The notes below the pieces were generated by a model that was not told where the DNA came from, did not search any database, and saw only the letters and a list, made by a program, of their open reading frames with translations. A stretch of DNA of 64,000 nt from Escherichia coli (GTDB lineage Bacteria; Pseudomonadota; Gammaproteobacteria; Enterobacterales; Enterobacteriaceae). Numbering within the stretch: position 1 is the stretch's first letter; each line of letters begins with the position of its first letter. The DNA is taken from the NCBI RefSeq assembly GCF_011045215.1, contig NZ_CP049202.1, one strand, 5' to 3'. Below are positions 6,766 through 48,868 of the stretch, piece by piece. The translations under genes were made by a program, and so were the position numbers.

Positions 6766-6915
6766 TTACTTCCGTGCTTCGTAGGCCAGAGTTATCTGCA
6801 CCACTGTATTTCTCCTGTGAATATTCAGCTCACACAACCGTTCCCTGAATATCAGTGAAAAACACAACAACGTGGCGCACACAGCGAGCAACCCTATAAG
6901 GGCATATTTCGTCAT
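6766..6915 (-). CDS. srnB: Hok/Gef-family membrane toxin SrnB-like, with overlapping mok-like leader frame to 6972
   Basis: MTKYALIGLLAVCATLLCFSLIFRERLCELNIHRRNTVVQITLAYEARK matches Hok-family SrnB. Confidence 0.75.
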   Translation of the reverse strand: MTKYALIGLLAVCATLLCFSLIFRERLCELNIHRRNTVVQITLAYEARK

Positions 6916-7260
6916 AAACTTTGACCTCTCTGCAAGGAAGAGGCTACAATCAGTAGTGTTAAGGTACTTCATGCAGACCTCACGAGTTAATGGATTAACG
7001 AGTGGGGTCTTCGCATTTCTGGTACCTGCGTCTTGCCTGAACCAGAAAGGCTCAGACACCCGCAGCGATAATACCACATTCCCGTTTGCCGGCCATGTAC
7101 CTGCATTTTCCGGTTATTATTATAAAAACGCCGGGGACGGGGAAAATTTGCTTTTTCCCGTTTCCGGGGTTGGACAACTGAGCAACGCGAAGGCGTCAGT
7201 TATTTCTGTTTATTACATTCTTCTGTATATTTTCTTTTTACAATTCGACACTGCCTTATC

Positions 7261-7470
7261 TCACCTGACATATGCCCAGACCTCTTTGGGAACTCTGTCA
7301 TATAACCTGTTCATCGTTAATTCAGCAAGACGGTGGTCTGCTGCTGAATTGAAGGCCTCACGCTCACTGTCCGGTAAATCATAGGTGTTCTTACAGATAA
7401 TCTTTTCCAGTGTATTCACCGATGAACACCGCCGTAACTGATATAACCATTCCTGTTTTGTTTTCGCCAT
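7261..7470 (-). CDS. Hha/YmoA-family nucleoid-associated regulator
   Basis: 69 aa; LRRC..NTLEKII.KN.Y.L...E...F.SAADHRLAELTMN.LYD..P resembles Hha. Confidence 0.7.
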   Translation of the reverse strand: MAKTKQEWLYQLRRCSSVNTLEKIICKNTYDLPDSEREAFNSAADHRLAELTMNRLYDRVPKEVWAYVR

Positions 7471-7530
7471 ATTTATTTCCAGTCAGCATGATAATTATAT
7501 GTATTAAAATTCAACGATACAGTCTTTCAT

Positions 7531-7767
7531 TTAATGACTACACCGCTGTCTTTCGCTACAGTTCCCCCTGCAGCGCCGCTGGCAATGCTCTGCTCTTTGC
7601 AGGGCAGACTGTTGCCACTCTGCCCGGGAAGCCATCTGTGCGGCCCGACGCCACGCTCCGGCAGCCTCTCTCCATCGCCCCCTGACCTCCAGTCTGACCG
7701 CCTGACTCCCGGCTTGCTGATAATTCTGGCTCTGCGCATTTCGTGAACTTCGTCTGAGTCCATTCAT
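7531..7767 (-). CDS. hypothetical small basic protein (low confidence; two overlapping frames open here)
   Basis: 78-aa ORF with plausible RBS in GC-rich DNA between hha-like gene and finO. Confidence 0.25.
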   Translation of the reverse strand: MNGLRRSSRNAQSQNYQQAGSQAVRLEVRGRWREAAGAWRRAAQMASRAEWQQSALQRAEHCQRRCRGNCSERQRCSH

Positions 7768-7974
7768 TTTTCCTGTCCCCTTTTACCTTTCCCGATACCA
7801 GCGGAATTCAGGATAAACGTTACTTTCTGATTATTTTTTATCTCTTTGTGTCAAAAGTCATTTCGGATATCCAGGATAATACCCCTCATTTAACTTAAGA
7901 ATAAACATGTGTTACTATATCGCTGCGTAACTTTGTTTGAAGTTCATAATAAAAAATCAGGGGTGAACAGGATT

Positions 7975-8003
7975 TCCTCCATCACGCGATGGAGGATTTT
8001 TTT
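7975..8003 (+). terminator. hairpin plus T-run (rho-independent terminator-like), just beyond the 3' end of finO
   Basis: TCCTCCATC-ACGCG-GATGGAGGA followed by TTTTTTT on the plus strand. Confidence 0.4.
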
Positions 8004-8009
8004 ACTGCT

Positions 8010-8570
8010 CTATTTTTCTTCAAGTACAGCCCTGAGCTCTGCTTTTATCCGGTTCTGGCAACGGATTTTCTCCAGACGCGCTGCCGCATACGCTTCCTCC
8101 TCCTGAGAAATATGCTCCGTCACATACCCTTCCGTGTCATACCGGCAGGCACCGGCTTTCATCGCGCCAAGATAGCTTTCTGAACGGGTGATGGCCTTCA
8201 GCGCCCTGCGCAGTTTTTTATGCGAGAGCGGGATATTCCGCTGCGCCACGTCTTCCAGTAACACGTCCCGGATACCGCAGGCCAGAAGCCGGGGTGTGTC
8301 ACCGTCAAATAATCCCGGCCACCAGGGCTTCAGGGTGTTCACAGCCTCATCCAGTGTGGGCAGGTTCAGATAAATGGACAGCGCCTGTCTGGCCTGCGCT
8401 TTTTTTGCCGCCAGCTCTGCTTCCCGGGCCGCTTTCTCGGCCAGTTTCTGCTTTTTCACCTTCCATTTTGGTGGCGTGGTGACATTGATGATGGTTTTCC
8501 GGCTGCGGACAGGCGTCTCTCCTTCTGTTTTCCGCTTCAGTGTCAGTACCGGTCGTTTCTGCTCTGTCAT
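8010..8570 (-). CDS. finO: FinO fertility-inhibition RNA chaperone (uninterrupted)
   Basis: 186 aa from [14 protein letters not shown]...; closely resembles F/R100 FinO. Confidence 0.85.
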
Positions 8571-8624
8571 GCTGTGTTCTGCCTCTGACGAATCATCCTG
8601 TTGCGGCCAAAGATACCACACCCT

Positions 8625-9371
8625 TTACAGCGCCAGAACGCCCAGTACAACCAGATGACCAGCGTAGAATACCGGGAAAAAATCCCCGGGCCAGAAACGG
8701 GGTAATGATTTCCCTGCACAGGACACCAGACCAACGGTCAGTACCGTCATCACAAGGCCGGCTACAGCCGCCGCATCACTGGCAGCAAGGTTCAGTGCCG
8801 GAATAACAACCAGCAGACATGCGACCAGCGCCAAGCGTTCCGCCCTGTCTTCCGCCCGGTACAATCGGTGACTGACCGCCAGCATCAGCAGCCCGGTAAT
8901 ACCGTAACTGGTGCCGGACAAAAGCAACCACACTGCCAGCAGCAACATGATTCCCACGGAACGCCACCCACTGCGTATTTCACACCATGTCAGCACCTGT
9001 GCCGCAACTGCAAAGGCAAACAGGATATTCCCCTCATACCAGGGAAAGCCGGCCAGATAATATGCGAACTGGGCAATCACCGCCCATCCCCACAGCCGGT
9101 TAATGGTCACCTGCCGGATATGCGCATGACGGGACAGATTCAGCCCCCACACCAGGGCAAAAAGCGGAAAGGCTCCTCGACCGGCCAGAAACATCCACGT
9201 CTTATCCAGATGCAGAATGCGGTTTGCATGGTCCAGAACCATCAGCACCAGTGCCACCGTTTTGATGATATCCCGCTGTCCGGGTGACCAGACCAGCAAC
9301 GACTGCAACCAGGTATCGGTCCGGGCAGCCAGTGAATCATTACGTGTTGTGTTCGTGTTATCCGTTGTCAT
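8625..9371 (-). CDS. traX: TraX pilin acetylase
   Basis: 248-aa polytopic membrane ORF directly downstream of traI. Confidence 0.85.
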   Translation of the reverse strand: MTTDNTNTTRNDSLAARTDTWLQSLLVWSPGQRDIIKTVALVLMVLDHANRILHLDKTWMFLAGRGAFPLFALVWGLNLSRHAHIRQVTINRLWGWAVIAQFAYYLAGFPWYEGNILFAFAVAAQVLTWCEIRSGWRSVGIMLLLAVWLLLSGTSYGITGLLMLAVSHRLYRAEDRAERLALVACLLVVIPALNLAASDAAAVAGLVMTVLTVGLVSCAGKSLPRFWPGDFFPVFYAGHLVVLGVLAL

Positions 9372-9390
9372 CAGCGTTTATCTTCCTGTG

Positions 9391-12300
9391 TCAGTCTCCG
9401 CCCAGGGTTTTCTCTTTCTGCAGGTCACGAACCATATCCCGCTCCATCTGCTGCAGTCGCTCCTGCAGCAGATTTTCCCGGGCAACCTCCCGGACCGCTT
9501 CCCGCACCCGTTGTGGTTCACGCAGTACACTCTCCGGCAGCGCGGCTTCCCGTTCAGTTATGGCAGCCCGGTCACGCTCCTGCCCGGCAATCTCCCTGAC
9601 AGCCTGCTCTGTTTTGCCATCCGGCAGGTCAGGTTTGTTCTCTGCCATTTTACGGACAATTTCATCTGCGCGACGTTCCGTTTCACGGCGGATGGCCTCT
9701 TCAGCCTGCCGCTGTGCCAGTACCTCTGCCGTGACCGGTTCGCCATTTCCGGCCCCCGGCTGGACGCTGTTGTCCGGAATATCTCCCCACACGCGACCAC
9801 CGGTGATGGCACCGGGATTCCACGGGCGACCTTCACCGGCAATTCTCACCACCACACCGCTGTCAGGATTATCACGAGCAATCCGGACGCCATCCTGCAT
9901 GTTATCAGCCAGCAGACTCTCTCCGTTACGGCTGCCCTGCAGGGCCACGAACTGCGCATCTCCGCTGCCTTTCACCCGGCCTTCACCGCTGAATCCCCGC
10001 AGCCCGTTTCCGTCATCCGTAGTCAGTGGGTTCAGCCAGATACCGGCGGACTTGCCGTTACGGTCAAAAGCCGGCAGTGCCACATACGGCTGCGGATATT
10101 TGCGCCCCGGTGCAATAAACCGTGCAGGACTGTCTCCCCCGGCAAGTCCCGCCTGACGGAGAACGGCACGCCCTGCCGCCACGTCCCGCAGTTCCCGTGC
10201 CGTACTGAACAGTCGCTCTGCATTCATGACCTCCCGGTCAGCTTTCGGCTCCAGCACATCGTGGGCAGTCCCTTTCTGTACGGCATTGTTGATGGCATCC
10301 GTCCAGCCCTGACGGTCATCAGTGTACACCTGCACATGCTGCTTCATACGCGACAGGGCAACGTAGGCTGACTCAAAGCCGGCCATCTGTTTCCGGCCAC
10401 CTTCCGTGCCTTCAAGCGCGATGGCAAAGGTTTCACTCGCCCCCTGTGCACCGTGGGCAGTGATGGCATAGGCCAGGTCAATATGTTGTTCTGCCTGCTC
10501 CTGACCGGGGCGAATCACCCGGGTCTGCAGTCCGTCAGAAAGCGTGACACTGTCACCGGAAACCGCCGTCACCGTCCAGACGCTGTTGGCCACATAGCCG
10601 CGCTCCCGGTCACTCTTCGTGAAGCGCATCCGGTCACCGGTCCCCACCCGGATGGTGTCCGGGGTGTACAGTGTGACACCTTCAGCCACCGCCTCCCGGG
10701 GCGAAATCAGCCGCGTGTTACCTTCCGCATCCTGCAGGGTTATCAGCCCGTCACCCTTACTGATACCGGCAATCCGGTGATACACATTATCCACCAGGAC
10801 AAGTGCGTCCCGATGTGTCTCCCAGGTGGAGAGACGACGCAACTCCCCGTCGCGTATATTCGCTGTGTTCAGGACAGGCACCATGACCTGCTCTTTTCCC
10901 AGCTCACCGGCCTTTTCCCGTGCATCATGAATCATGCTGTTCAGTACGCGCCGGTCCTCATTCAGATGCGTGACAATCAGCGTCTGCTCCCGTGCTTCCG
11001 GCGTCCTGCCGGTATAATCGCGGACAATGGCTTCATACAGTGTCATGGGAATATCCGGAAAAGCCTCACCTTTCAGCATCGCCTTCTGCTGCGCTTCTGC
11101 CAGTTTCGCTTCCTGGCTGTGACTGAACTCCGTCACGGAGTGCTCCGGTACCCATGCGCCCTCCTGACGTGGCACCTGAGACGGTTTCACACTCTCAAGC
11201 CCGGACAGTGCCCTTTCCACATCCCGGTTAATCAGGCTGTATACCGCCTCCCGCAGCTCCGGCGTCTGACGCACAATCTCCTTCATGATGGCCACATCGG
11301 CAGCACTGCGCGTCTGCTGGAGACGGAAAGGCTGACCGGGCGCGATGGCCTGCAGCTGGTCCGTGTCACCACTGGCCACGGCACGACCACCACCGGCCGC
11401 AATCAGGGCGTATGCCCGTGCCATGTCGGTATTGCCCACCATTGAGCTCTCATCGAGCAGGAACAGCGTGTTGCTGAAATCCGGCGTTTCTCCGCTGCGC
11501 TGCTGCAGCTGCGTGTCATGCAGAAAGGACGCCAGTGTCTGTGCATCCACGCCAGCGCTGCGCATCTCCCCGACCGCACGGTGCGTGGGCCCCAGCCCCA
11601 CGACACGGGGACGCTCACTCTCCGGCAGCATGTTCACGGCTGACATCACCGCCCGGAACTGTGTGGTCTTACCCACACCGGCATAACCCTGCACCACCGT
11701 GAAGCGGTCAGAGGTTTCCAGTATCATGCGGGTGGCGGCACGTTGCCCCGACGTCAGTTTCTCCATAAGTTCGCCAGGTACTCTCTCCATCAGCGGCGTG
11801 ACAGCCTCCTTACCTTCGAGAATATGGCGAATAATGCTTTTTTCAGCCTCATATGACGCACGGGAAACCAGCAGGTCTGTGCCATAACCTTTTGCCACAT
11901 CCACATGCAGTAAATCACCGCGTTTTATCTGTGCATCGATTTCCCGCCCCAGGTCAGCAAAACTGGTTCCTTCTGCAGCAAACGACTTTGCCTCTGTCAG
12001 CAGGTCCACATGGCTGAAGGCCAGGTTTTTACTTTCCACCACCGGAAGGGCCAGATGAATGGCCTGCTGTGCCGGCGTGTGAAGTGCGGACTTCTGATGA
12101 CTGATAGCGGTTTCCAGCGATGTCTCACCGGCCCGCGCCTTTATCTGCTCAGAAACCACCGTAAAGGAGGGATGGCGGGCAAGTTTTTCCGCAGTACGGG
12201 TTTCATCCAGTGAGGAATACAGCCGGACATCACGACCGCTGCGGGCCAGACCGTTCAGGGTGGCGTTGTCCATTGCCATCTGTGTGACGGAGGCAAAAAC

Positions 12301-18536: not shown

Positions 18537-18549
18537 CCAAAATATCCTT

Positions 18550-29645: not shown

Positions 29646-30098
29646 TTAATTACCCGTAGGGTTTTCTCTCAGTTTTTCTGCCAGTTTTAAAAAAGCATCA
29701 AATTCTTTCTGATCTGCACATATTTTACTGGCTGTAACCGACACGGTTATTCCTGATATGTTATTGGCAGAGTCTTTAACATCATTATTATGGACGGAGA
29801 CATTATCGGGACTGAAAATATAAACCTTTTCTCTGGGATAATCCCTGTCCACATCCTCCCGCCACTGAATCTGTTCTTTATCAAAACGGTGATACATTAT
29901 TGAGGAAAACCGGCACAGCCAGTCGTCAATGCATGACAGCTTATCCAGTAATTGTTGCGAATGACGGACCTCACTGGCAAGCTGCCGGCACTCCATAATG
30001 CACCGTGACACACCACCATTTGCATTCACAAGCGCTTTCATTTCCAGCAGAACACCCATATCAAGTATTCTGGAGCCATATTTTATATTATTACTCAT
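29646..30098 (-). CDS. hypothetical soluble protein (AT-rich cargo between traU and trbC)
   Basis: 150-aa ORF with no recognisable motif. Confidence 0.5.
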   Translation of the reverse strand: MSNNIKYGSRILDMGVLLEMKALVNANGGVSRCIMECRQLASEVRHSQQLLDKLSCIDDWLCRFSSIMYHRFDKEQIQWREDVDRDYPREKVYIFSPDNVSVHNNDVKDSANNISGITVSVTASKICADQKEFDAFLKLAEKLRENPTGN

Positions 30099-30441
30099 TA
30101 CATCCTCCTCTGTTTTTGTTTACACACTTACCTGGCATAAACGCATCAGAGCACAAATATTTAAAAAACACAGCAGCAAAAGCACACACAAATGCAGCTT
30201 TCAGATATAGCCGGACCAGAAACATTTTCCCTGACATATCTGACTGTTGCCATTCATAAATAACCTCACTGAGGACACTATCAGGAACAAAATAAAACAA
30301 TATTGCAGGTGCCATTACCAGATTAAAAGGAAACCATTTTAATGGTTCATTTATCAGCCGGATAAGCACACAACCTGTTCTTTTTAAATTATGTGTGTAT
30401 TTACTTTTTATCATCTCAATTTTCATAGATATTCCTCTCAT
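30091..30441 (-). CDS. hypothetical membrane protein (AT-rich cargo between traU and trbC)
   Basis: 116-aa ORF with hydrophobic segments. Confidence 0.45.
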   Translation of the reverse strand: MRGISMKIEMIKSKYTHNLKRTGCVLIRLINEPLKWFPFNLVMAPAILFYFVPDSVLSEVIYEWQQSDMSGKMFLVRLYLKAAFVCAFAAVFFKYLCSDAFMPGKCVNKNRGGCNE

Positions 30442-32453: not shown

Positions 32454-32536
32454 AATAATGCCCCTGTTTTCTCTGTTTCCTCTTTGCGGTAATATGCTTC
32501 CCTGATTTTCAGGTAAGTTAAAAAGGTGCGTTTTAT

Positions 32537-33644
32537 ATGACGAAAAAAATCCTCTTATTTTCCCTGATTTTTATTTTTAGTATCACCGGCACTTTTTCTC
32601 TTATGATAAACGGCAAACAGAAAAAAAGTGCAGATAAAATCATTCCCGCAATCAACGCTAAATATAATAATAAATGGCTTACACACAGATTAATAAAAAT
32701 GGACTATGATAATGGAACGGCTTTATCTGTTATTCAGAAAGCATGGAATAACACCGAATACTTCATCCTCTCAGCCAGAAAAAAAATGCCAGTCAGCCAC
32801 AACCACTCTTAATTTTCTTTACTGCACAAATGATTTGCTTGGCGAAATGTTTCCTTATAAGGAATCCAATATGGTCAGCCCGGCATATGCCAGTCAGTTC
32901 TCTGATTGCGATCTGAATGTCTATCTTCTCATTGACGCAGCAAAAGAATCTGGCAGGCAGATTGAGATCATATTCGCCCCCTTCCACGCTTTTATTTCAT
33001 ATATTGATGATAATAATGCAAGAGCATACTGGGAAACAACCGCCAACCATAATAAAGGTTCTGTTGCGGATTTAAATGATAATCACTGGTATCAAAAAAC
33101 ATTCAATAAATTCTATTATGTTCCTCGTAGTGAAAATTACATAGAATCACTCTACTCTGTACTGATTGCAAATAGTGTAGACTCATCACATAAAAAAGAA
33201 ATATACAACAATCTTAAGCCGGAAATAAAAAAGACACCATTAGCCTATGATCTGTACTACAGCATGAAAAATGAAATCTCGTCTCAGGATGCCGAACAGA
33301 TTAATCTTTTGTTAAGAGAAGACATTACCTCATCATATAAACAACTTCTTCTTACCGGATACTTCATTAAAAACAACAATACAGAAGCAGCCCAAAAAAT
33401 CATTGACAACATACGAGCAAAAAACTGTAAATCAGACTGCATTAGGTTTAAGAAAAAAGTGTACTGGTACTTTTTTCCATCATATCTGATCTCTCAATAT
33501 GCATCGGAATTTGGCGTCACACTATCCCTTGAAGATATATATTATTATTACGCATTCAATATTATCATTATTCTGTTTAGTTCCCTTTTATTTTTGCCTA
33601 AAAGCAGAGATAAGAACAAGAAAAGGCGTGAGAACAATAAATAA
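32537..33644 (+). pseudogene. secreted Y/N/K-rich protein gene, antisense to tra, apparently frameshifted at an A8 tract
   Basis: 91-aa ORF with signal peptide continues as a 312-aa ORF in another frame; both frames read KK across the A8 run at 32779..32786. Confidence 0.45.
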
Positions 33645-34004
33645 CAGAGCAGGCACACCCCCATCCATAAGGAAACTCAGGGGGAGACTGCAGGTTACAG
33701 GCACCATGATATAGCATCCCATCACGATCAAAGGGCGATGACGACACAGTTCTGTATATTCATATAACCCGGTTCTGCCATATAAATCCCTGACAAGCAA
33801 AGACGGAGCAATCATAAACAAAACGCTTACAATGGCATAAATCATCAGCACATATTTTGTTTCTCTCAGAAATGGTTCCGGTGTATTTATTTCTGATTCA
33901 ACAAAACGCTCATACCAGTACAGAAACAGGTCGCCACAGGCCACACTGTTAAGGATAAAAAATAAGACAATATCAGATACCTTCTTTATATGACAAAATT
34001 TCAT
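33588..34004 (-). CDS. hypothetical polytopic membrane protein between traC and trbI
   Basis: about 138 aa from internal start; convergent 3' overlap with the plus-strand ORF. Confidence 0.4.
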   Translation of the reverse strand: MKFCHIKKVSDIVLFFILNSVACGDLFLYWYERFVESEINTPEPFLRETKYVLMIYAIVSVLFMIAPSLLVRDLYGRTGLYEYTELCRHRPLIVMGCYIMVPVTCSLPLSFLMDGGVPALLFIVLTPFLVLISAFRQK

Positions 34005-34026
34005 ATATACCCCTTGTGACCAACCC

Positions 34027-36672
34027 TTAACCCCAGTTTCCTGACATTCGTTCGCCGGACATTTCATGCTCTTTTAACCAGGCTTCCAGCGAAGCCATCT
34101 CCGGCCCTGACTTCTTCCACGCCAGCTGCCACACCGCCTCATGAATACTCAGGCCCTCTTTACGCTTCTGCTGCACAAACTCAAAATCCGGGCCGTCGGA
34201 GCTGTACATGGCACGGCTTAACGGGTCCACAAACAGACGGTGCCAGGAGGAATGGTTTTCCACCTGCAGCAGGAAGGAACTGAACCACTGGTCTTTAGCC
34301 GCACCAAACTTGCCAATCATGTCCCGCTGCAGTGGCAGGAACTGGTCCGGGAATAACTGGTTATATTTCGCGAACTCCTTCGCACTCTGTTTGAGGATAA
34401 TTTTGTAGGAGGAGTTACCCCATGCCGCACGGGCCGCACTGGAGGCCTTGTCAGAGTCAAAGTCGACGATGTTCTGTGTGATGGTGATATAGGCACCGGT
34501 ATGACGGCGACAGGTGCGGTAACCTTTTTGAATAAACTCACCGACTTTACGATTTTTGAAGTCCAGCAGACGCCAGCCTTCATCAATGACGTTCAGTTTT
34601 TTGAGAGTACGCGGCGTGCGGTACATCCTGTTCTCGATGTAGATAATCAGGGAGAACATCACCGCAACCAGCAGGGACGGACGGTCTTCCAGTCCACCCA
34701 GCTCCAGCACCACCATTCTGGCATCATCCCGCAGGGACGGTTCATCAGAGTTAAAATACCGGCCGTAAGTGCCGCCAGCGGTATATTGATCCAGAAGGAC
34801 AATCATTTCATCCAGACGGCTGCGGATGGTCGGAGACTCGACATACTGGTCGTTATCACGGGCGTTTTTCAGGAAATCCACCACATCATCGATGCGCGCC
34901 TTATTCTTTTTAGCCAGCCAGGAGGCCCTGACCGCCTGCAGCAGCAGACCTTCATGTACTTCATCCAGGTTACCGTTGGGGCTGGCCATCACCGACAACT
35001 GGTCACGGACACGCTCCGCTGACTGGTCAATATCAGTGATGTTCGCAAACGGGTTAAAACGCAGGGTTTCACCGTCCAGATATACGCCCCCCATGTTCTC
35101 ACACAGGGACTTGTAGCCATCCCCCATGTCGAACACCACGGCAAAGCCCCCGGAGTCCAGCACGCTGCGGATAAGTGGCTGTATCAGTCCGGTTTTACCG
35201 GCCCCGGAGGTGCCACAGACCGCCATGTTGTAGTTGGTGTTATTCATCCCCTTAAAGAAGATATCGATAAACGCCAGCTGGTTACGGTAGGTGGGCGCCA
35301 GCAGACCTGCCGGTGTCAGGGGATTATCCGCCACTAACGGCATCAGGTTGGCCACATTAAAACTCTCTGCCCGCTGTACCACTCCGGCCTCTTTCAGCTG
35401 TTTAAACAGCCCTTTCCCGGCCATAAAGGGCAGGCAGGTCAGGAAATTGCGCATGTGGTTAAAGCGCGGTGAAATCAGCTCAAAACCGTTTTTACGAAAG
35501 CTGTTCAGGATGTCCTGCTCCACTTCCAGTGCCGTTTCATTATTGTCCCTGCAGAAGGCTGTGATGTTGAGGAAGTAGGACACGACAGAAGACTGGCCGG
35601 AGCCCAGCCGCTGGCGCAGTTCCCCCCACTCCTTCGCCTCCTTTTCAACTGACGGAAACCATTTGGCATAGGAGGTCTTCGACTTTTTCTCCAGGTCCAT
35701 GTACTTCAGGTTGGCTTCGCTGTGGGTTTTCACCTGGTCTTCCACCACCAGAGTCAACGTCAGGATGAACGGGCAGGAAATGGACATTTCCGGGTTCAGC
35801 AGATTGCTGTAGTTGTCGGCCATGTTCCACAGGAAGGCGATTTCCGGGTTACGGGCCAGATGGAAATTCAGGATGCGGGCCGTGCTGTTCCTGCCGTTCT
35901 CACGCAGGCCCAGCGTCAGGTAATCAGCCCGGACTTTCAGGTCAAAACTGTCCTCCACACACTGATAATTCAGATCAGAATACGGATCCAGCTGACGTCT
36001 TTTCGGGTACAGAGAGTCCGGATTATGGTTAATCATCTCCCCGACAATCTCGATGAAAGCCTGTGCATCCACTGTCTGTGTGGTGATTTTTGCGCCGTGA
36101 AAAGAGGCACGGATGATTTTCACCAGATTTTCCATTTCCAGAATGTCAGCCCGGCTTTTTTTCTTCGAGGGAGAACAGTACGAGATAAACACCCGGTAAT
36201 GGCGCAGGGTCAGGGGCAGATTCATCCCCTCCGGCAGCGGGAACTGTGTCGCTGCCGCTTTCATATAATAGGCACGGGTAATGGCGTTAAACCGTTCAGC
36301 CTGTTCACCTGACCAGGAGAACTCACGCAGCCCGTATTCAATCCTGTCACCAACCAGCTGACTGGACATCAGATGGATACACAACGGAATACCGCGCGGC
36401 AGTTTGGTGCGCAGCATATGATCGAGAGCCTCCACAATGGACTCATTCGCACCATTGATGGGAATGGCTTCCAGCATAAAGCCCATCGTGGTGTCATTCA
36501 TGAACAGGCCGGACTCCTGGTTGTAATCACGGTACGGCAGCAGACGGCTGAACTGCGGGAAGCTCATCTCACCGAGGATCTGATTAGCCTGAGAGGATTC
36601 ATCCGGTAATTTAAGCGCAGTCAGCAGTGAATTAACCGCCTGAGTGACGGTCTCAAGTGGGTTTTTACTCAT
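34027..36672 (-). CDS. traC: TraC VirB4-like ATPase
   Basis: 881 aa; Walker A GTSGAGKT. Confidence 0.95.
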   Translation of the reverse strand: MSKNPLETVTQAVNSLLTALKLPDESSQANQILGEMSFPQFSRLLPYRDYNQESGLFMNDTTMGFMLEAIPINGANESIVEALDHMLRTKLPRGIPLCIHLMSSQLVGDRIEYGLREFSWSGEQAERFNAITRAYYMKAAATQFPLPEGMNLPLTLRHYRVFISYCSPSKKKSRADILEMENLVKIIRASFHGAKITTQTVDAQAFIEIVGEMINHNPDSLYPKRRQLDPYSDLNYQCVEDSFDLKVRADYLTLGLRENGRNSTARILNFHLARNPEIAFLWNMADNYSNLLNPEMSISCPFILTLTLVVEDQVKTHSEANLKYMDLEKKSKTSYAKWFPSVEKEAKEWGELRQRLGSGQSSVVSYFLNITAFCRDNNETALEVEQDILNSFRKNGFELISPRFNHMRNFLTCLPFMAGKGLFKQLKEAGVVQRAESFNVANLMPLVADNPLTPAGLLAPTYRNQLAFIDIFFKGMNNTNYNMAVCGTSGAGKTGLIQPLIRSVLDSGGFAVVFDMGDGYKSLCENMGGVYLDGETLRFNPFANITDIDQSAERVRDQLSVMASPNGNLDEVHEGLLLQAVRASWLAKKNKARIDDVVDFLKNARDNDQYVESPTIRSRLDEMIVLLDQYTAGGTYGRYFNSDEPSLRDDARMVVLELGGLEDRPSLLVAVMFSLIIYIENRMYRTPRTLKKLNVIDEGWRLLDFKNRKVGEFIQKGYRTCRRHTGAYITITQNIVDFDSDKASSAARAAWGNSSYKIILKQSAKEFAKYNQLFPDQFLPLQRDMIGKFGAAKDQWFSSFLLQVENHSSWHRLFVDPLSRAMYSSDGPDFEFVQQKRKEGLSIHEAVWQLAWKKSGPEMASLEAWLKEHEMSGERMSGNWG

Positions 36673-40331: not shown

Positions 40332-41745
40332 TGCCCCCTCCCTGACTGCCGGACATAAACTGCTGCGGATTCAGGTTGCCCAGTTGCTTCAGCATCTGGT
40401 CAGTATTAAAGCCGTTAAGATGACTTTCAGCTGATGGCGGAACAGGAACCGGACTTTCCGGATTGTCTTCTTCCGCTCTGCTCTGCGTGCGTTCCAGCGC
40501 CATCTCTTCCACGGTTTTCAGCTGGAAGCCGTCCTGGAACACCACGGTCACTTCGTTGCCCGCACCAATCGGTATCACCGGGTGATACTGTTCGGCACGT
40601 TTGATGTAGTAGTCACTTAGCGTCTGTGCGGCTTTCGATGCGCCGCCACCGATACCCATTTTAAGGACATCGCCGACCCCGTAAGCAGCAGTGGCACCCA
40701 GCCCGACAGCCGGCTGGGAGGCGCGCTCCATTCCCTGACCGATACCGTCAACAAATCCCGCGCCCCATGCCCAGCCGAGGATTTTGCCGTTACGCATCAC
40801 CACTTCGCCCTTGATACCGTTTTTACCCCGGAAGCTGACATGCCCCTTAATCGGCATATCAATGGTTTTGCCGTCCTTCAGGCAGCTGATATTGCGGGTG
40901 CGTACAATGGCACGCTCACTGGACACATCCCCCCAGGCTTCCAGACCCACAAAACATCCCGTTGCGTCATACGTCTTGCTGTTCGGCATTTCCACCAGGC
41001 CGGTGATACGCAGCTGCATCGGCACCGTGGATTCATTACCGGTGACAGAGGCATTGGCATCAGCCCCTTCAATCAGCATGGCTTTCGCAAAACTTCCTGA
41101 CGGAATGTACGGCAGTGATGGTCCCTGTTTTCCCTCATTACGGGTAAACACCTTACGCTGTATCCGGTTAGGTACCGGCACAGACTGGTACGTCACCTGT
41201 GGTGGTGGCGTGACACCATTCCCGGGATAAAACGCCGTCGGCGGTGGAACAGCAACGCTGCCCTGCGGCGGGAAGGATACGGGGGTGTTTCCTGGCTGTG
41301 GTTCGCCTTCCGGGCCGGGCGGTGAGGCAGGCATCTGCGGTACAGGCTCACCGGTCGCCGTGACGGGATTAGCACCCAGGGCTTTTACCTGCTCTGCCAG
41401 GGCGGCATTGTCCTGTCCCAGCTTTTCAATACGACGCTGGTCATCACCGCGCTGTTTGTTCAGAACATCCAGCTCACGACGGATTTCCTCATACTGCTTC
41501 TGCATCTGCGCTGCCGTCACCTGCATCTCGGTGGTGGCATGCTGACGCACCTTGTCATCAAAGGTCGTATCCACCACACCGGTCATATCCGGCACAGGCT
41601 CCTGTTCAGCCACGGTTTCACCGTTACCGGACATGTCCACATCAGACAGATACAGTGCCCCACCAATCGCGGAGGCTGTACCGACAACCACAATCCCCAG
41701 CCACAGGTACTGCTTGCGTTTCACAATGGTATTGATACTGGCCAT
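40318..41745 (-). CDS. traB: TraB VirB10-like protein
   Basis: 475 aa, same length as F TraB; proline-rich linker. Confidence 0.9.
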   Translation of the reverse strand: MASINTIVKRKQYLWLGIVVVGTASAIGGALYLSDVDMSGNGETVAEQEPVPDMTGVVDTTFDDKVRQHATTEMQVTAAQMQKQYEEIRRELDVLNKQRGDDQRRIEKLGQDNAALAEQVKALGANPVTATGEPVPQMPASPPGPEGEPQPGNTPVSFPPQGSVAVPPPTAFYPGNGVTPPPQVTYQSVPVPNRIQRKVFTRNEGKQGPSLPYIPSGSFAKAMLIEGADANASVTGNESTVPMQLRITGLVEMPNSKTYDATGCFVGLEAWGDVSSERAIVRTRNISCLKDGKTIDMPIKGHVSFRGKNGIKGEVVMRNGKILGWAWGAGFVDGIGQGMERASQPAVGLGATAAYGVGDVLKMGIGGGASKAAQTLSDYYIKRAEQYHPVIPIGAGNEVTVVFQDGFQLKTVEEMALERTQSRAEEDNPESPVPVPPSAESHLNGFNTDQMLKQLGNLNPQQFMSGSQGGGNDGK

Positions 41746-42473
41746 CAGTTGCCCTCCCCGTCACGGATGACATACACATCCATGCGCGCACCTGCCAGTA
41801 ACTGGCTGGCAGGCTGGCTGAACATCACGGCACGGGTTCCCGGCTGCCAGAAGTCACTTTCCCGGATATTCAGGGCAGACAGCGTTTTATTTTCCACGGC
41901 AAAGCGGACCATCTTCAGGTGATTCCCCGTCCATACGGCATCTGCCACTGAAGACAGCCCCGCCGGGGCCTGCAGGGTTTCCTTTGTCACCGGGACCTGA
42001 TACCAGCCTGCGGGTAATTTTCCGCCACGGACGGCCTGGCTGATGGTCACAAGCAGGGATTCGTAAGGCGTGGACGTTTCCCACGCACCGGCTTCTTCTC
42101 CGGTTCCGCGCAGGTCACTGACCAGCTGAATGGTACGCCCCGCGCCTTCACGGGGAACGGCCTGAATGGAAAGATTCAGACCACGTTCTGTTTCCAGAAT
42201 GAACGTAAAGGGCTTTTTGTTGACGGTGGCAACCACCACACCGCCGGAGGCGGTCTGCTCATTATTGGTCAGGGCACCATCCAGACTGTTCACGGCGATA
42301 ATCCGGTCACCGGGAACGGTAAACAGATTCGGGCTGGTATTGCTGATGGCAATACTGGCCTGACCACCGTTCACCATTGGCACCACGGTGGGGGCCAGCG
42401 TACCGTTTGCGGCCATCACGCTGCAGGAAAAAAACAGGCTGCCGAATATTATTGCCGTATTATTTTTTCTCAT
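41745..42473 (-). CDS. traK: TraK secretin-like protein
   Basis: 242 aa with signal peptide. Confidence 0.9.
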
Positions 42474-43026
42474 CGTCTGTTTCCCCGAAATTATCCAGCC
42501 AGGTCACCCCGTTTTCCCGCTTCAGAATAAGGATGTAATGTTTGATATCAGTGAAAGGTTTTGAATCACCAATCCAGGTTTTAAGCACACCACGAATTTC
42601 CACACGGCCATACTGAGGCCAGACACGAACACTGGTCTGGAAAAAGGCTGAGTTCACGTTATCGTTTTTAATACGCTTCGCTTCTTCAGCCAGAATAACT
42701 TTCATCTGGTTCTGTGCGCCCGGACGGATATATTGCAGAAGCGCCTGATGTGAGGCATCGACGGTTTCTGATGAAACATTCAGGCGGAGGGCAATAAATG
42801 ACAGCGCCATCTGCTGTAAATAAGAGGCATCTGCACTATTCTGCGACACGGCAAAGGGGGCATTAAATGCCATTGGCGTCACGGCAGTGCGTTGCTCATT
42901 CTGAAGACGGTAGTTATTCACCCCCTGAATGACGTTAACAGAGAGGCTGAGAACAATAAGCACTGACATAAATATAAAGGCGATGGCCATTACACGACTG
43001 GTACTTAAACGGGCACCGTGTTCCAT
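42460..43026 (-). CDS. traE: TraE pilus assembly protein
   Basis: 188 aa with N-terminal TM helix. Confidence 0.9.
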
Positions 43027-43047
43027 ATAACAATCCTGGTATCAGTT

Positions 43048-43359
43048 CTATTTAATCCACTGCCGGAAACACGAATCGGGAATATTATGAAAAATACCGC
43101 GCAGCAGGGCTGTTGGCATATACCAGTAAATCAGGTCACGTAACCAGGAACTGCCCCGCCCCTTTTTCAGTTTTTTAATCCCGAAATAAACCAGAACCGC
43201 TGCACCAATACCGAACAGATATTTCGATGTTGTGATACCCCAGCCAGTACAGATTGCTGCGGGTATCAGTTCATCCAGTGGCAGGCCAAAGTAGCGGCTC
43301 TGGTTGGTCAGTGTTTCCGGGAAACGATATTTCTTAAGTTTATTCTCGTCTCCCGACAT
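43048..43359 (-). CDS. traL: TraL pilus assembly protein
   Basis: about 100-aa membrane ORF between traA and traE. Confidence 0.8.
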
Positions 43360-43373
43360 CGTTTTATTTCCTG

Positions 43374-43733
43374 TCAGAGGCCAACGACGGCCATACCCAC
43401 AGCAATAAATACAGAAATGATGGCAAAACCGGCCAGGAACTTGACGTTTTTGGTCATCATGTACATGACCGCACCGACCAGAACTTCAGCCAGAACAACC
43501 CATTTAACAACACTGGAGTCCTTACCGAAGGTCGCCTTAACCGTGGTGTTACCGCTTGCCATCAGGTCCTGGCCCTGTGCTGCCATTGCCAGCTGCGGGA
43601 AGAACATCATCAGAACAGCAGCCGGGATCACAGCGCGAACCAGGCGAAGCATATTCAGACGAGTGAATTTAGAAAAAAACGACTTCTTTTTGACGGGCGC
43701 AGAAGCACCCTGAACACTTAAAACGGCGTCCAT
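43374..43733 (-). CDS. traA: TraA propilin (F-type)
   Basis: 119 aa; ...[75 protein letters not shown] near-identical to F-like pilins. Confidence 0.95.
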
Positions 43734-43775
43734 ATGATTCCTCTGTTTAATATTGATAGTAAAAAATAAAACTCT

Positions 43776-43991
43776 TTATATATCGTCTATGTCTTCAGCT
43801 TCCTCCTTTACTAAAGATGCATTATAAAAGTCGGGAAAACGATTGAGATGATCTTTTAGTCTAATGAACACCTCATTAGTTTTTGTTCTTCCGCTACGAT
43901 CCCTGGCTGCTAAAAGTTTCTGATTAGTTGTCTCATCCAGTATTAATAAGACTTTGTTACCTGGTGCGGCTCTGGTTCTCCCTCTGCTCAC
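43776..43991 (-). CDS. traY: TraY ribbon-helix-helix oriT-binding protein (non-ATG start likely)
   Basis: 71 aa resembling the short R100-type TraY. Confidence 0.75.
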   Translation of the reverse strand: MSRGRTRAAPGNKVLLILDETTNQKLLAARDRSGRTKTNEVFIRLKDHLNRFPDFYNASLVKEEAEDIDDI

Positions 43992-44126
43992 GTTCCCTCC
44001 GCATAATTACTTGAGATAATAAAATATAATCATATAAATCATCTTTAATGAAAACAAAAATAGAGTAAATTATATTAACAAAAACGGGAACCAATGGTTC
44101 CCGCAAAATAACAAAAAGTTAACAGC

Positions 44127-44774
44127 TTATCTTCCCAATATTTCTTTTACTTTAGCATATAAAGGAAGTATCTTTTCCGTTCTAATCATTTCATCCAACC
44201 AGAGATCTCTAGAACTAAATCCATATCGTTTAAATAATTTCATGGTTTTCTTCTTTGATTTAGACACAGTGATGTTCATCTTTGCTGATGAATAATGATG
44301 GCTAAACCCTATCAGATATGGCTCAATGCCTACATATTCATCAGAGGGTACAATTAATTCATTGGAGTATTTAGACACAACAAACGATGACAGATTATCA
44401 TTTGCTACCCAAATAAACCTCCAGATGAAGAAATAGCCGCATGGTGTTATAACACTTTCTATGATCACACTCCATAACGTATTATTAAGTAATATGTCAT
44501 TATTACAATTTACACCATAAATAGAAGAGCATGATTCAATCTCTGCTCTGGATAACTGTAATTTACATTCCAACGTTAAACTATCAAACCATTCATCACA
44601 TGAATTAAAGGACGATCTGATAAGTTTTTCAAAGCAGTTATTTTCCTTAATAAAAGAACCATCCTCGAAGCGGATACATACAGGATATTTTAAAAACGAA
44701 ATAGCCTCTCCAAGACTATGAGGGAAATGCAATTGACTGATGAGTGCTCTTTCTCTACGATCCATCGCACACAT
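44127..44774 (-). CDS. traJ: TraJ transfer activator
   Basis: 216 aa from ATG at 44774 preceded by GGAGG; position between traY and traM. Confidence 0.7.
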
Positions 44775-44857
44775 AGGAACCTCCGTTAAGGATTCTATGG
44801 ACAGTCGATGCAGGGAGTGGCTGCTCCCTGCATCGGCGATTTTCAGTTTCAATTTTT
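44771..44857 (+). ncRNA. finP: FinP antisense RNA (approximate ends)
   Basis: plus-strand stem-loop over the traJ RBS/start, then perfect stem-loop GATGCAGGGAG...CTCCCTGCATC followed by a U-rich tail. Confidence 0.45.
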
Positions 44858-44964
44858 AACGTGGCATTAACCACGTAATCAATATACTAATTATTCTGAT
44901 TATTGTCATCAGTTCGAACCATAAAAAACTCTGATATTTGAACAAAGTCAAAATTTATTTCCCT

Positions 44965-45348
44965 TTATTCATCATCATTTTTTGGAAAGAACCTTTCCAT
45001 CTCAACCGACACCTTCTCTCTGATATCTTCAACCATATTGGCATATTCAAACTTCGGGTTTCCGGAAACATGAGGGCTAAGAGACTCAATACCTAAAATC
45101 TTTGCCACTGTTGACTGCGTTTTTACAACACATTCAAGAAGAAGTTTATTAAACTCTGCCTGATTAAATGCTGATTCTTTTCGTTCCATCTGCGCTTCAT
45201 AAACTCGCAATCCTAACTCAAGCAACATAGAGGCAATACTTGAATAACTAACATCTTTCTCTTTTGCTCCCTCTGCTCGCCTCTGCACAGCAATAGCATT
45301 TATTTTTTCAGACACATGGTCATTAACATAAACCTGAATTTTGGCCAT
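44965..45348 (-). CDS. traM: TraM relaxosome accessory protein
   Basis: 127 aa; closely resembles F-like TraM. Confidence 0.9.
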   Translation of the reverse strand: MAKIQVYVNDHVSEKINAIAVQRRAEGAKEKDVSYSSIASMLLELGLRVYEAQMERKESAFNQAEFNKLLLECVVKTQSTVAKILGIESLSPHVSGNPKFEYANMVEDIREKVSVEMERFFPKNDDE

Positions 45349-45779
45349 AACACACCTTATTTATCTTCCTAAACAAACAATATGTTTTCGTGCTCTCTAT
45401 TCTTCACCTTACGACGAATCGCCATTAGATTCATCATACTAAAATTACGATTCACTATACGAATCAGCAATCATCAAATGACGAATCTAATATAGATTCA
45501 CGCGCCAAGTAAATAGATGTTTTCAAAAAAATAGTCATTACTGAATCATTGACAATTCGTGATAGATTCACTATCGAATCTATCACGAATCCCTGCAATA
45601 TAATTCAAAATTATATAATATAAATACACTTCATTAATTACATGATTTAAAACACAAATCAGCAAAAACTTGTTTTTGCGTGGGGTGTGGTGCTTTTGGT
45701 GGTGAGAACCACCAACCTGTTGAGCCTTTTTGTGGAGTGGGTTAAATTATTTACGGATAAAGTCACCAGAGGTGGAAAA
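45349..45779. promoter_or_regulatory. oriT with nic site between 45688 and 45689 on the plus strand, plus TraM-binding repeats
   Basis: TTTTTGCGTGGGGTGT/GGTGCTTTTGGTGGTGAGAACCACC matches the F oriT nick region; GAATC/GATTC repeat motifs at about 45400-45590. Confidence 0.85.
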
Positions 45780-46289
45780 ATGAAAAAATGGATGTTAGCC
45801 ATCTGCCTGATGTTTATAAATGAGATCTGCCATGCCAATGATTGCTTTGATCTTTCAGGCCGGGATTACAAAATAGATCCTGATTTACTGAGAGCAATAT
45901 CATGGAAAGAATCCCGTTACCGGGTTAATGCCATCGGTATTAATCCGGTAACGGGATATGGCAGCGGACTGATGCAGGTAGATTCCCAGCATTTTAACGA
46001 ACTGGCCCGCTATGGAATTAATCCGGAACATCTGACAACAGATCCCTGCATGAACATTTATACCGGTGCTTATTATCTGGCAATAGCCTTTAAAAAATGG
46101 GGCGTCTCCTGGGAGGCCGTTGGTGCATACAATGCCGGATTCAGGAAGACCGAACGCCAGAACCAGAGACGTCTTGCCTACGCATCAGATGTTTACCGGA
46201 TTTATACCGGGATAAAAAGCAGTAAAGGTATCCGGATTCCGGCCACGAAGAAATCACTTCCGGAAATTAACAGCGTGCAGAACAATTAA
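45780..46289 (+). CDS. lytic transglycosylase, gene X / orf169
   Basis: 169 aa from ATG at 45780; signal peptide; SLT-like core. Confidence 0.85.
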
Positions 46290-46707
46290 TCTTACAGACA
46301 TTGTCAGATACCGGTTATGCCGCAAAAGCGGCATGGAAGGCCACACACAAAAATATCATATGAGTGACAATACTGACTGGCCGAAGCCCCGCGAAGCGGG
46401 AACCCATCTTATATATACCCGGTAACTGCGCAGCCTCCTGCCAGACCATTTTTCGCGGGCACAATATTTACAGACAACCGGAAAGCCAGTTGATGAAATT
46501 GAGGTATATCAGACGACACAGCGATGCCGAAGAATGATAATATAAGTAAAGCCCCGAAAATTTTTCGGGGCTTTACTTATATTATCATGACTTCCACTTT
46601 CTGAACTGTTCGGCAATCACCCATAACGCCTTGTTGATTCTTATATCACCATCAATACCTGTAATGGCTCTTGTCCTAGTATTTTTCCCGGAGGCACTTT
46701 GCCCCGA

Positions 46708-47406
46708 TCATCCACCTTTTATCATATTCTCCTGAACCCGCTGCCAGGTTGTCCAGAGATCGTTCTGTTTATCCTCCCAACGATGGGGAGTAATTATCTG
46801 TTCAGGCGTCACTGGCGTTTTATTTTCATCTTCATACCTGACCATCAGTGCAGCTCTGCTAAATAAATGTTGCTCGTCACTGTTAAGATGAATTTCTTTC
46901 ATCGCCTCCATATTATCAGTGACCTTATCAAAGATACCGAGTACTTCATACGCTCCCTCGATAACCTGCTCGACAATATCACCTTTATGTGGAACGCGGA
47001 TTTCGCCAAAATTATTTCCGCACACCAGGCCATTTGTGCAGACAAAACGAAAAATTCCGGGGATCATCTGATAACTGGATGAACCATCATGTGAATTAAG
47101 CAGGATAATTTCAGGAACTTCCTGCCCGTTAATATGCCCTTCCCTGCGAAGACGTAACATATGTTTACTGTATTCGCGACGTCCCAAATCACGAACCCGA
47201 CTCTGACAGGCAAAGAATGGCTGGAAACCTTCATCACGTAACTTATTGATGATATTGATTGTTGGAATATACGTATAACGTTCACTCCGGGACTCATGTT
47301 TATCACCGGAAAATACCGAAGGCACGAACTGCATTAATTCATCATCCGTTAAAGGACGTTCACGGCGGATGGAATTATACCGACCAAAACGGGAAGCTAA
47401 TCGCAT
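46708..47406 (-). CDS. leading-region hypothetical protein (orf273-position)
   Basis: about 232 aa from internal start; conserved position next to gene X. Confidence 0.5.
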   Translation of the reverse strand: MRLASRFGRYNSIRRERPLTDDELMQFVPSVFSGDKHESRSERYTYIPTINIINKLRDEGFQPFFACQSRVRDLGRREYSKHMLRLRREGHINGQEVPEIILLNSHDGSSSYQMIPGIFRFVCTNGLVCGNNFGEIRVPHKGDIVEQVIEGAYEVLGIFDKVTDNMEAMKEIHLNSDEQHLFSRAALMVRYEDENKTPVTPEQIITPHRWEDKQNDLWTTWQRVQENMIKGG

Positions 47407-47524
47407 AACAGCTACTCCTTTATGAAAGAATAAATTTAATAAAAAATTTTTCCGCTTAATATCATCCCTCCTGGTCACCATTAACAAGATTGCAACAATC
47501 AGGAGGAATATTCATCACATCCAG

Positions 47525-47811
47525 TCAGCAGATCGCCCGGATATCGAGGCCGGCACGCTTAATCTGACGCAGGAACTGTTTGAAGTGATCGGCTTCCGCA
47601 ATGTTGATATGGCGGAACTGCGTATCCACACCCCGGCTGAGCGCGTAGCTATAGCTGAAGGCCATCTTTTCCGGGTGGCTTTTGCGATATTTTTTCAGCT
47701 CAGTCAGGCTGCTGAATTCTAGGACGTCCCACTCTTCCCCGGTGTTTTTTTCTTCCCGGCAACAAGAAGCGTGTACGACGCGGTGTTAACGTGGATATTT
47801 CGGGTACTCAT
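47525..47811 (-). pseudogene. orf95-like leading-region gene with a frameshift in an A7 tract
   Basis: MSTRNIHVNTASYTLLVAGKKKTPG then stop; a 1-nt shift at 47745..47751 restores a 95-codon protein. Confidence 0.5.
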
Positions 47812-47837
47812 CCTGCTTTCTCCTCTCTCTGGTTTTC

Positions 47838-48380
47838 AGCCCCCATCATCTTTTGAGTTTCGGGAGCCGCGGTTTTGACGTTTTGCGGGGACCTGCCTTT
47901 TGTTCCCTCCGGTATTCACCATCATCTTTTTGAGAACCTTCGCCGCAAGGGGCATCACTGCCACGGCCGGAAACGACTGTCCGGGGGCAGACCGCAAAAG
48001 TTTTTGCCTGCTTCTGGGCAAAAACTTTTGCGGGATGTGCATTTCACCCCTGGACTGGCGGAGACGGTTGTGGCTGTATCAGCCCCCGGCGACAGGGGAT
48101 TAAACAGGTGAATGGCACCGGACAGAACAACGGGCAGGGACCCGCCGCAGCGACGTGAAGCGCGGTTTGCGAAACGGCGTTGCCCCTTACATCCCGGCGG
48201 CCTTTTGCCGGGATGCCGGGAGCGCAGGCCACGGCGCGACAGAGGCGGCGCGACCGGAACGGTCGCTGCAAGCCCGGGGTTTCGCGTCAGGGATGGAAGC
48301 CCGCCAGGGCGGAGACAGCTTCGCTGGCTCCGTTCACGACAGCCCGCCCCGCCAGGGGGACGCCCGGAAAAGGCATAAGC
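47838..48380. repeat. ~540-bp structured repeat, copy 1 (candidate single-strand promoter, Frpo/ssi-like)
   Basis: about 95 percent identical to 53226..53790; contains perfect 15-bp inverted repeat GCAAAAGTTTTTGCC...GGCAAAAACTTTTGC and longer imperfect arms. Confidence 0.6.
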
Positions 48381-48709
48381 AGGAGAACAACAAAACAGAC
48401 AATAATCAGGGCAGCAGTAATCAGAGTCAGAACAGGAGGAAAAAGAGAATAATCAAAGGGAAGGTGATGTGATTTCTGACAGGTCATAAACAGAGAAGGC
48501 GGGGGAAAAGAACGGGCGCCGCAGGCGCACGTTCATCCCCGTTCCCGGAGGGAAACGGCCTTCCTGGCAGTCTGGTTGTTCATGCCCGTACAATGCCAGC
48601 AAGGAGAAAGGGGCCACCGGCGAACCAGCAGCCCCTTTATAAAGGCGCTTCAGTGCAGTCAGACCAGCATCAGCCCTGAAAAGGCGGGCCTGCGCCCGCC
48701 TCCAGGTTG

Positions 48710-48868
48710 CTACTTACCGGATTCGTAAGCCATGAAAGCCGCCACCTCCCTGTATCCGTCTCTGTAACGAATCTCGCACAGCGATTTTCGTGTCAGATAA
48801 GTGAATATCAACAGTGTGAGACACACGATCAACACACACCAGACAAGAGAGCTGCGTGGTAGTTTCAT
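48710..48868 (-). CDS. hok: Hok/FlmA membrane toxin, with overlapping mok-like frame to 49009
   Basis: [52 protein letters not shown], near-identical to Hok. Confidence 0.85.

Follow-up and report, generated by a model that had tools for sequence, protein, structure and literature searches.

Four toxin-antitoxin modules of known families in a segment of an F-like conjugative plasmid from Escherichia coli

Introduction

Stacking of toxin-antitoxin (TA) systems has been documented for F, for the Shigella plasmid pINV and for the F33 plasmids (PMC10899753; PMC6052338). The systems ccd, flm and srn are found on F, and vapBC, gmvAT and ccd on pINV (PMC10899753); in F33 plasmids, pemKI, hok-sok and srnBC occur together, to which vagCD and stbDE may be added (PMC6052338). 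Post-segregational killing has been followed by live imaging for hok-sok, a tacAT system and other families (PMC10899753), and Flm, SrnB and Hok are studied plasmid homologues of the Hok family, with expression of Flm being toxic (bioRxiv 10.1101/2025.08.07.668861). GmvAT, reported to be the one acetyltransferase TA system of pINV, stabilises both this plasmid and the model vector pSTAB; the effect depends on Lon and is seen mainly at 21 °C (PMC6519299). Its toxin, GmvT, acetylates Gly-tRNAGly almost exclusively (PMC9177977). Here, a 64-kb stretch of Escherichia coli contig NZ_CP049202.1, termed the window and considered as a segment of a plasmid the remainder of which lay outside the analysis, is described with respect to the four TA modules identified in it, namely, flm, srnB, a GNAT/DUF1778 pair of the GmvAT type and a RelBE pair.

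Results

The window very probably carries four independent post-segregational-killing modules, all of characterised families, with three bracketing an IncFII/FIC-type replicon and the fourth lying in the conjugative leading region, i.e., the DNA that enters the recipient first. All four are apparently intact and match their families far beyond chance, and both type II pairs show the canonical arrangement, with the antitoxin gene first and overlaps of 10-11 nt between the two genes. The three modules near the replicon fall within positions 1847-7063 (~5.3 kb), flanking it on both sides; flm is the module found in the leading region. A preliminary description of the same DNA had listed these four modules under a span of 6766-48868, which has to be given up, given that both protein pairs lie to its left. 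The RelE/RelB-type and GNAT/DUF1778 pairs named there are indeed present (Table 1), as borne out by NCBIfam and Pfam models and RelE structures for the former and by Pfam models and structures for the latter, and srnB lies on the minus strand exactly where it had been placed (6766..6915). The accompanying remark that such redundancy is typical of F-like plasmids agrees with the literature introduced above.

Matches to Rfam models and the map of open reading frames (ORFs) together identify the window as a segment of a large F-like (IncFII/FIC-type) conjugative plasmid. The Rfam matches comprise CopA, FinP/traJ 5' untranslated region, an antisense-to-traG RNA and two hok/sok leaders. The ORFs run from the replicon (copB, tap, repA) through finO and traX and a full F-type tra operon to traM, followed by oriT, the leading region, an impCAB-type operon and two partition systems. 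Together with flm, the leading region contains psiA/psiB, a ParB-like gene, ssb, an antirestriction gene and an orphan methylase gene.

Each of the two Hok-family type I loci extends beyond the bare coding sequence (CDS) to an mRNA unit of ~410-430 nt plus an antisense gene. In the case of flm, the toxin is 100% identical to FlmA of F, with the exact sequence being named FLMA_ECOLI in UniRef, and passes both the NCBIfam Hok subfamily model and Pfam HOK_GEF, the latter with E=4e-21 and 74.8 bits (cutoff, 22). The locus as a whole is 99.4% identical to flm of plasmid F (NC_002483) over 651 nt. What the preliminary description had presented as hok/mok at 48710..49009 contains a genuine hok CDS (48710..48868), with the range itself corresponding to an in-frame, GTG-extended stop-to-stop ORF; the actual mok/flmC frame is a different one, at 48714..48926, and the locus is an orthologue of flm. 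In the minimum free energy (MFE) fold of the predicted flm mRNA (49036..48603; -195 kcal/mol, z=-7.5 relative to shuffled controls), the 5' GGCGCUU (49030-49036) pairs with AAGCGCC (48644-48650), and a hok/sok-leader match in Rfam spans 48866..49037 (E=2e-19). The FlmB/Sok-like antisense RNA, for which a promoter-like site is seen at 48882-48910 (TTGCGC-17-TATCCT), covers the flmC start codon (48924-48926).

The srnB locus is 96% identical to srnB of plasmid F over 530 nt, and the toxin that it encodes passes the same HOK_GEF model (E=9e-7, 28.8 bits against the cutoff of 22). Here, an inverted repeat and the MFE fold of the predicted mRNA (7063..6655; -177 kcal/mol, z=-6.9 relative to shuffled controls) bring the 5' positions 7048-7062 together with 3' positions 6700-6714, and the Rfam leader match spans 6905..7061 (E=6e-20). 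A promoter scan assigned the SrnC-like gene the sequence TTGACC-18-TACAAT (6921-6950), which agrees with the consensus at 10 of 12 positions. The leader ORF of srnB reads in frame with the toxin, and translation of the locus revealed no leader ORF in an alternative frame.

In both predicted mRNAs, therefore, the extreme 5' end is paired with a segment near the 3' end, in the manner of the tac/fbi pairing that holds hok-type mRNAs translationally inert. The two loci share no similarity at the blastn level and their toxins are only 35% identical. Predicted duplexes between each antisense RNA and its cognate mRNA reach -122 and -119 kcal/mol, as compared to -50 and -45 kcal/mol for the two cross pairs, values close to the shuffled background of ~ -40 kcal/mol. 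Because the cross-duplex energies lie near this background, the FlmB and SrnC antidotes should be orthogonal and unable to substitute for one another. The identity of 96-99% to tested F loci, combined with the literature on these loci, supports the view that both would kill plasmid-free segregants.

It was also observed that the Rfam model for the sok antitoxin (RF01794, 157 nt) finds its match on the strand of the toxin mRNA and extends over the entire 5' leader, as opposed to the antisense RNA of ~65 nt. Strand calls obtained with RF01794 should hence not be taken as marking the antitoxin gene and, accordingly, the antisense genes listed in Table 1 were assigned from promoter and hairpin features and not from the Rfam strand.

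In the GNAT/DUF1778 pair, the toxin is 95.6% identical at the amino acid level to the Shigella flexneri pINV GNAT protein, the antitoxin is identical at 95 of 96 residues, and the antitoxin matches Pfam TacA1 with E=2.9e-19. Given that pINV is reported to carry one acetyltransferase TA system (PMC6519299), the pair is, on the basis of these identities, assigned as the orthologue of pINV GmvAT. Among structures, the near-identical PDB entry 9ilr, for which a literature search found no describing paper, gave E=7.7e-103, with the tRNA-acetylating toxins TacT, AtaT, KacT and ItaT ranking below it. The toxin retains the acetyl-CoA motif QGHGFG and the sequence AFYERFGF, and its catalytic tyrosine aligns with a position that reads phenylalanine in chain 5fvj, the Y-to-F mutant of TacT. 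The 'tacAT from E. coli 53638' of an earlier study (PMC10899753) was considered as being the same system and rejected, as that system is 90% identical to Salmonella TacAT; in the toxin described here, about half of the residues are identical to those of TacT structures in the printed alignment, and TacT 5fvj was matched with E~4e-44, as compared to the value for 9ilr given above.

The 979-nt cassette matches 187 PLSDB plasmids, including 105 from Shigella that are ~95% identical at the nucleotide level, and differs at a single base from the copy in plasmid A of E. coli C5, the closest relative of the replicon region. In S. flexneri pINV, the corresponding genes have IpaH and OspC genes as neighbours. 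Relative to F, the cassette is a ~1.1-kb insertion bracketed by a ~140-nt direct repeat, the two copies of which (A and B) are 93% identical; a three-way alignment showed F to have a single copy between srnB and copB. Two 25-nt repeats upstream of the antitoxin gene are shared with both pINV and the E. coli C5 plasmid and may represent the operator/promoter region. Within the aligned region upstream of the antitoxin gene, the window departs from the C5 copy at one position only, 6443, where G is replaced by T. The upstream ATG annotated by PGAP as the DUF1778 start (MEVFM...) is thereby destroyed, which suggests that the real start is probably the downstream ATG at 6433.

The toxin of the RelBE pair aligns end-to-end with E. 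coli RelE structures (PDB 4v7k, 4fxe; E=7.7e-30) and scores above the cutoff of 27.9 bits for NCBIfam RelE_StbE (37.1 bits), while also matching Pfam ParE_toxin (E=2.8e-13). In the aligned stretch KIKLR...R...KRER..VY, the Lys/Arg/Tyr positions that serve as the catalytic residues of RelE are conserved relative to E. coli RelE. The antitoxin scores 120.6 bits with the NCBIfam RelB equivalog PRK11235, for which the cutoff is 96, and also matches Pfam RelB (E=2.3e-16). Membership in these families suggests ribosome-dependent mRNA cleavage by the toxin and a Lon-labile antitoxin. The pair lies just beyond oriR, and the same relBE abuts repA in pRHBSTW-00673_2. Among the matches listed in PLSDB, only ~10 plasmid records contain the pair, and this relBE beside repA is seen in no more than a handful of plasmids. 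Relatives differ at 7 of 96 positions in RelE and at 1 of 84 in RelB.

An ORF on the minus strand (1032..1769), predicted to encode a 245-aa coiled-coil/membrane protein, follows relE directly and belongs to an AT-rich block (GC ~0.37). No match to this ORF was found in Pfam or NCBIfam, PADLOC matches were weak and below significance, and the family is rare (20 matches). Two Logan assemblies contain the same trio of relB, relE and the 245-aa ORF, in one case with Abi_2 and DpnII-type genes nearby. A role for this ORF as a third RelBE component was not supported, as most plasmids with this relBE lack it and relatives sharing 77% identity occur in E. coli chromosomes beside a resolvase gene, without relBE.

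Drawing on the families involved, the following scheme may be proposed. Both flm and srnB would yield a stable, tightly folded toxin mRNA held untranslatable by fold-back pairing of its 5' and 3' regions, with the start of the leader ORF being covered by a short-lived cis-antisense RNA (FlmB or SrnC). Following plasmid loss, the antisense RNA would decay, the processed mRNA would be translated and a peptide of ~50 aa would damage the inner membrane. In the protein-based modules, labile RelB would neutralise RelE, a ribosome-dependent endonuclease acting on mRNA in the ribosomal A site, and the labile DUF1778 antitoxin would neutralise a GNAT toxin that would otherwise acetylate charged tRNA (Gly-tRNAGly in the case of GmvT), thereby blocking translation. 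The protein antidotes would be orthogonal because the protein families are unrelated. With all antidotes being unrelated, losing one module would leave three in force, such that the plasmid should be hard to cure. Integrity and orthology to tested systems suggest that the modules are active and that each may contribute to maintenance of this plasmid.

Several observations weigh against four working modules. SrnB is a divergent member of the Hok family that passes the Pfam model and falls below both NCBIfam Hok cutoffs, and it differs from F SrnB by three substitutions (V16L, G35R and V41I). The ends of the mRNAs and antisense RNAs of both Hok loci were placed by homology and consensus scans. 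At 37 °C, GmvAT is weakly effective in Shigella (PMC6519299), and the G->T change at 6443 converts the antitoxin Shine-Dalgarno sequence GGAGG of C5 plasmid A and pINV into TGAGG, leaving GAGG. No study was found that tested a plasmid RelBE of exactly this type for post-segregational killing and, speculatively, a host chromosomal relBE, the toxin of which is 54% identical, could cross-neutralise the plasmid pair.

Such observations could be taken to mean that one or more of the modules are silent passengers, whether decayed, neutralised by chromosomal homologues or restricted by temperature, and that true redundancy is lower than four. This would fit not only with the activity of GmvAT mostly at 21 °C (PMC6519299) and the single-base departure of the antitoxin Shine-Dalgarno sequence from that of relatives, but also with the greater variability of RelE than RelB, the presence of relBE and hok homologues on E. 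coli chromosomes, and the partial decay under redundancy proposed for ccd (PMC10899753). Yet all of the ORFs are full length, catalytic residues are conserved, regulatory RNA features are intact and exact copies of the protein variants are found on many public contigs, which argues against decay. As such, we consider silent passengers quite improbable, and prefer four functional modules.

A second alternative is that the modules owe their retention chiefly to other functions, with segregational stability being a side effect; these could include defence against phage by abortive infection, the exclusion of rival plasmids and, in the case of flm, early establishment following conjugation. In the leading region, flm lies near psiA/psiB, ssb, the antirestriction gene and the orphan methylase gene, a region reportedly enriched in anti-defence genes and hok/sok loci, so far as PMC11541004 is cited in bioRxiv 10.1101/2025.08.07.668861. 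Moreover, in a related contig, the cargo to the left of relBE includes Abi_2 and DpnII-type genes. Against this stand the stabilisation of plasmids by orthologous loci, i.e., F flm and F srnB in the literature and GmvAT (PMC6519299), and the clustering of three of the modules around the replicon, where maintenance functions would be expected. Accordingly, a primary role of this sort seems unlikely, although other jobs and maintenance are not mutually exclusive.

Additional TA modules were sought in the window. When all six frames were searched for the Hok motif R/K..LCE, the two known loci and no third were detected, a scan at Rfam gathering thresholds found no further hok/sok leader, and Pfam assigned no TA family to any of 20 unassigned ORFs, among them overlapping pairs of small ORFs in the tra and leading regions. 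Likewise, the PGAP annotations of the closest plasmids list no further TA module. Four is thus the minimum for recognisable TA families within the 64-kb window, because uncharacterised small ORF pairs remain. One such overlapping pair lies on the minus strand between traU and trbC (29646..30441; 116 aa then 150 aa, 8-nt overlap), is hypothetical in relatives and has no Pfam match; its geometry is TA-like, with nothing further in support.

Two other candidates were rejected. A ParA-like ATPase (62945..63589) reached 20.5 bits against the Zeta toxin model, as compared to a cutoff of 22.3, and is paired in partition-like fashion with a ribbon-helix-helix (RHH) protein. An Hha-like gene and a small ORF upstream of it do not constitute an Hha/TomB-type pair, as the upstream ORF has no match to TomB or any other Pfam family; in some records, this same ORF is labelled an ANR-family regulator.

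Table 1. Coordinates of the TA modules and associated features in the window
Feature	Position	Strand	Details
RelE-type toxin gene	1847..2137	-	96 aa
RelB antitoxin gene	2127..2381	-	84 aa; 11-nt overlap with relE; upstream, same operon
Promoter-like TTGTCA-17-TATACT upstream of relB	2412..2440	-	Putative, read from sequence
~140-nt direct repeat copy B	5424..5562	.	copB-proximal; flanks GNAT cassette
GNAT acetyltransferase toxin gene, GmvT orthologue	5670..6152	-	160 aa
DUF1778/TacA-type (ribbon-helix-helix) antitoxin gene	6143..6433	-	96 aa; 10-nt overlap with toxin gene; upstream
Two 25-nt direct repeats, 37 nt apart	6442..6503	.	Just upstream of antitoxin start (repeat search)
~140-nt direct repeat copy A	6544..6685	.	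srnB-proximal; contains srnB mRNA 3' hairpin
srnB mRNA, predicted full length	6655..7063	-	Ends placed by homology to F
srnB toxin CDS	6766..6915	-	49 aa; 46/49 residues identical to F SrnB
srnB leader-plus-toxin ORF (mok counterpart)	6766..6972	-	In frame, 68 aa
SrnC-like antisense RNA gene	6921..7020	+	RNA from ~6957; hairpin and U-rich tail
flm mRNA, predicted full length	48603..49036	-	Terminal hairpin; end pairing
flmA/hok toxin CDS	48710..48868	-	52 aa
flmC/mok leader ORF	48714..48926	-	70 aa; overlaps flmA in different frame
FlmB/Sok-like antisense RNA gene	48882..48975	+	RNA from ~48918; hairpin and UUUU
Promoter-like site, flm mRNA	49043..49072	-	TGGTCA-18-TATGAT

Examination of the remainder of the window revealed additional features of the plasmid backbone. 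The replication initiator region (3259..4816, minus strand) consists of two ORFs, one of 181 aa resembling the RepA1 N-terminus and one of 342 aa matching RepA_IncFII_LM, both labelled RepA by PGAP in the closest relative; the initiator may be mosaic or duplicated. A ParM/ParR (StbAB-type) partition system (61348..62716, minus strand) adjoins a second one composed of the small ParA-like ATPase and RHH protein (62945..63858, plus strand), such that two partition systems work beside the four TA modules as maintenance functions. An umuC/impB-like polymerase gene (60073..61343, plus strand), downstream of DinI-like and UmuD-like genes, appears to be split into ORFs of 330 and 138 aa and is probably a frameshifted pseudogene; no intact umuC appears in the PGAP annotation of the closest plasmid.

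The leading region contains two copies of a ~650-nt element, one just downstream of flm (47836..48500) and the other upstream of ssb (53209..53900), with identical N-terminal pseudo-ORF translations. The second copy includes a long homopolymer-rich run, translated as KKKK/FFFF. These repeats may be single-strand promoter (Frpo/ssi-type) elements. In the tra operon, an AT-rich insertion of ~1.6 kb (32454..34026) occupies the trbI/traC junction, with ORFs at 33588..34067 (minus strand) and 32537..33644 (plus strand, apparently split), neither of which has a match in Pfam or PADLOC. In E. coli C5 plasmid A, trbI and traC are directly adjacent and the insertion is missing, whereas 24 E. coli plasmids in PLSDB contain it.

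Discussion

All of the components described here are already known, and stacks of this kind have been documented. The six protein sequences are each exactly present in public data, with exact-sequence counts of ~1000 contigs for FlmA, 491 for the GNAT toxin and 80 for RelB, and the SrnB, RelE and RelB variants share one longest contig, of 167,766 bp. No relBE-bearing PLSDB record and no complete E. coli RefSeq genome covers at least 80% of the full combination around the replicon. That the combination was not found whole reflects mosaic shuffling of known parts.

The value of these assignments is hence practical, not conceptual, and the understanding of TA biology is unchanged. Any attempt to cure, miniaturise or destabilise the plasmid must handle four non-cross-reacting killers, two of them damaging membranes and the other two inhibiting translation, each in its own way. 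With three of the modules lying within ~5.3 kb around the replicon, minimal-replicon derivatives would carry these along. At the same time, the corrected identities (flm and not R1 hok, a GmvAT orthologue, and RelBE in the pemIK position) point to published reagents and conditions that apply, such as the dependence of GmvAT on Lon and on temperature.

The gene order around the replicon also allows for a more elaborate, very improbable scenario, in which exchangeable 'addiction slots' lie on either side of the replicon and TA read-through into copB/repA couples TA state to copy-number control. One slot would lie beyond oriR, holding relBE here and pemIK elsewhere; the other would lie between srnB and copB, where the GmvAT cassette would have entered via the ~140-nt duplicated sequence. 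As srnB, gmvAT and copB-repA are co-oriented and the hairpins between them are weakly terminator-like, read-through from the autoregulated TA operon could feed copB/repA expression. Four independent modules concerned with post-segregational killing remain the preferred explanation.

When compared to described systems, flm is closest to its counterpart, flm of plasmid F, itself a near-twin of R1 hok/sok (parB). It occupies the same site in the leading region, between psiA/psiB and a DUF932 gene, shares with it the mok-type overlapping reading frame, the antisense gene and the pairing of the 5' and 3' ends, and differs at only 4 nucleotides. The srnB locus similarly shares with F srnB/srnC its site between finO and the copB-repA replicon, as well as the antisense promoter, leader ORF and end-pairing, whereas the sequence upstream of the extended -10-like TGGTATTAT is not the same. 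Moreover, F srnB abuts copB directly, whereas a 1.1-kb TA cassette separates the two here.

Relative to K-12 chromosomal RelBE, the toxin of the RelBE pair is 54% identical and the antitoxin passes the RelB equivalog model. In terms of location, the pair corresponds to the R100/R1-type pemIK (parD/kis-kid) slot beyond oriR; E. coli C5 plasmid A has pemIK at this site, as do F33 plasmids, in which the position has been described as an integration hot spot (PMC6052338). RelE, however, belongs to a different toxin family from PemK and is thus a positional analogue, not a homologue.

Finally, the GNAT/DUF1778 pair shares with pINV GmvAT, a system of the TacAT clade, the same operon layout and the same upstream repeats, yet differs in context. 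In pINV, the pair lies among insertion sequence elements and genes encoding type III secretion system effectors, whereas here, as in E. coli C5 plasmid A and several Escherichia albertii plasmids, it is found between srnB and copB, flanked by the ~140-nt duplication.

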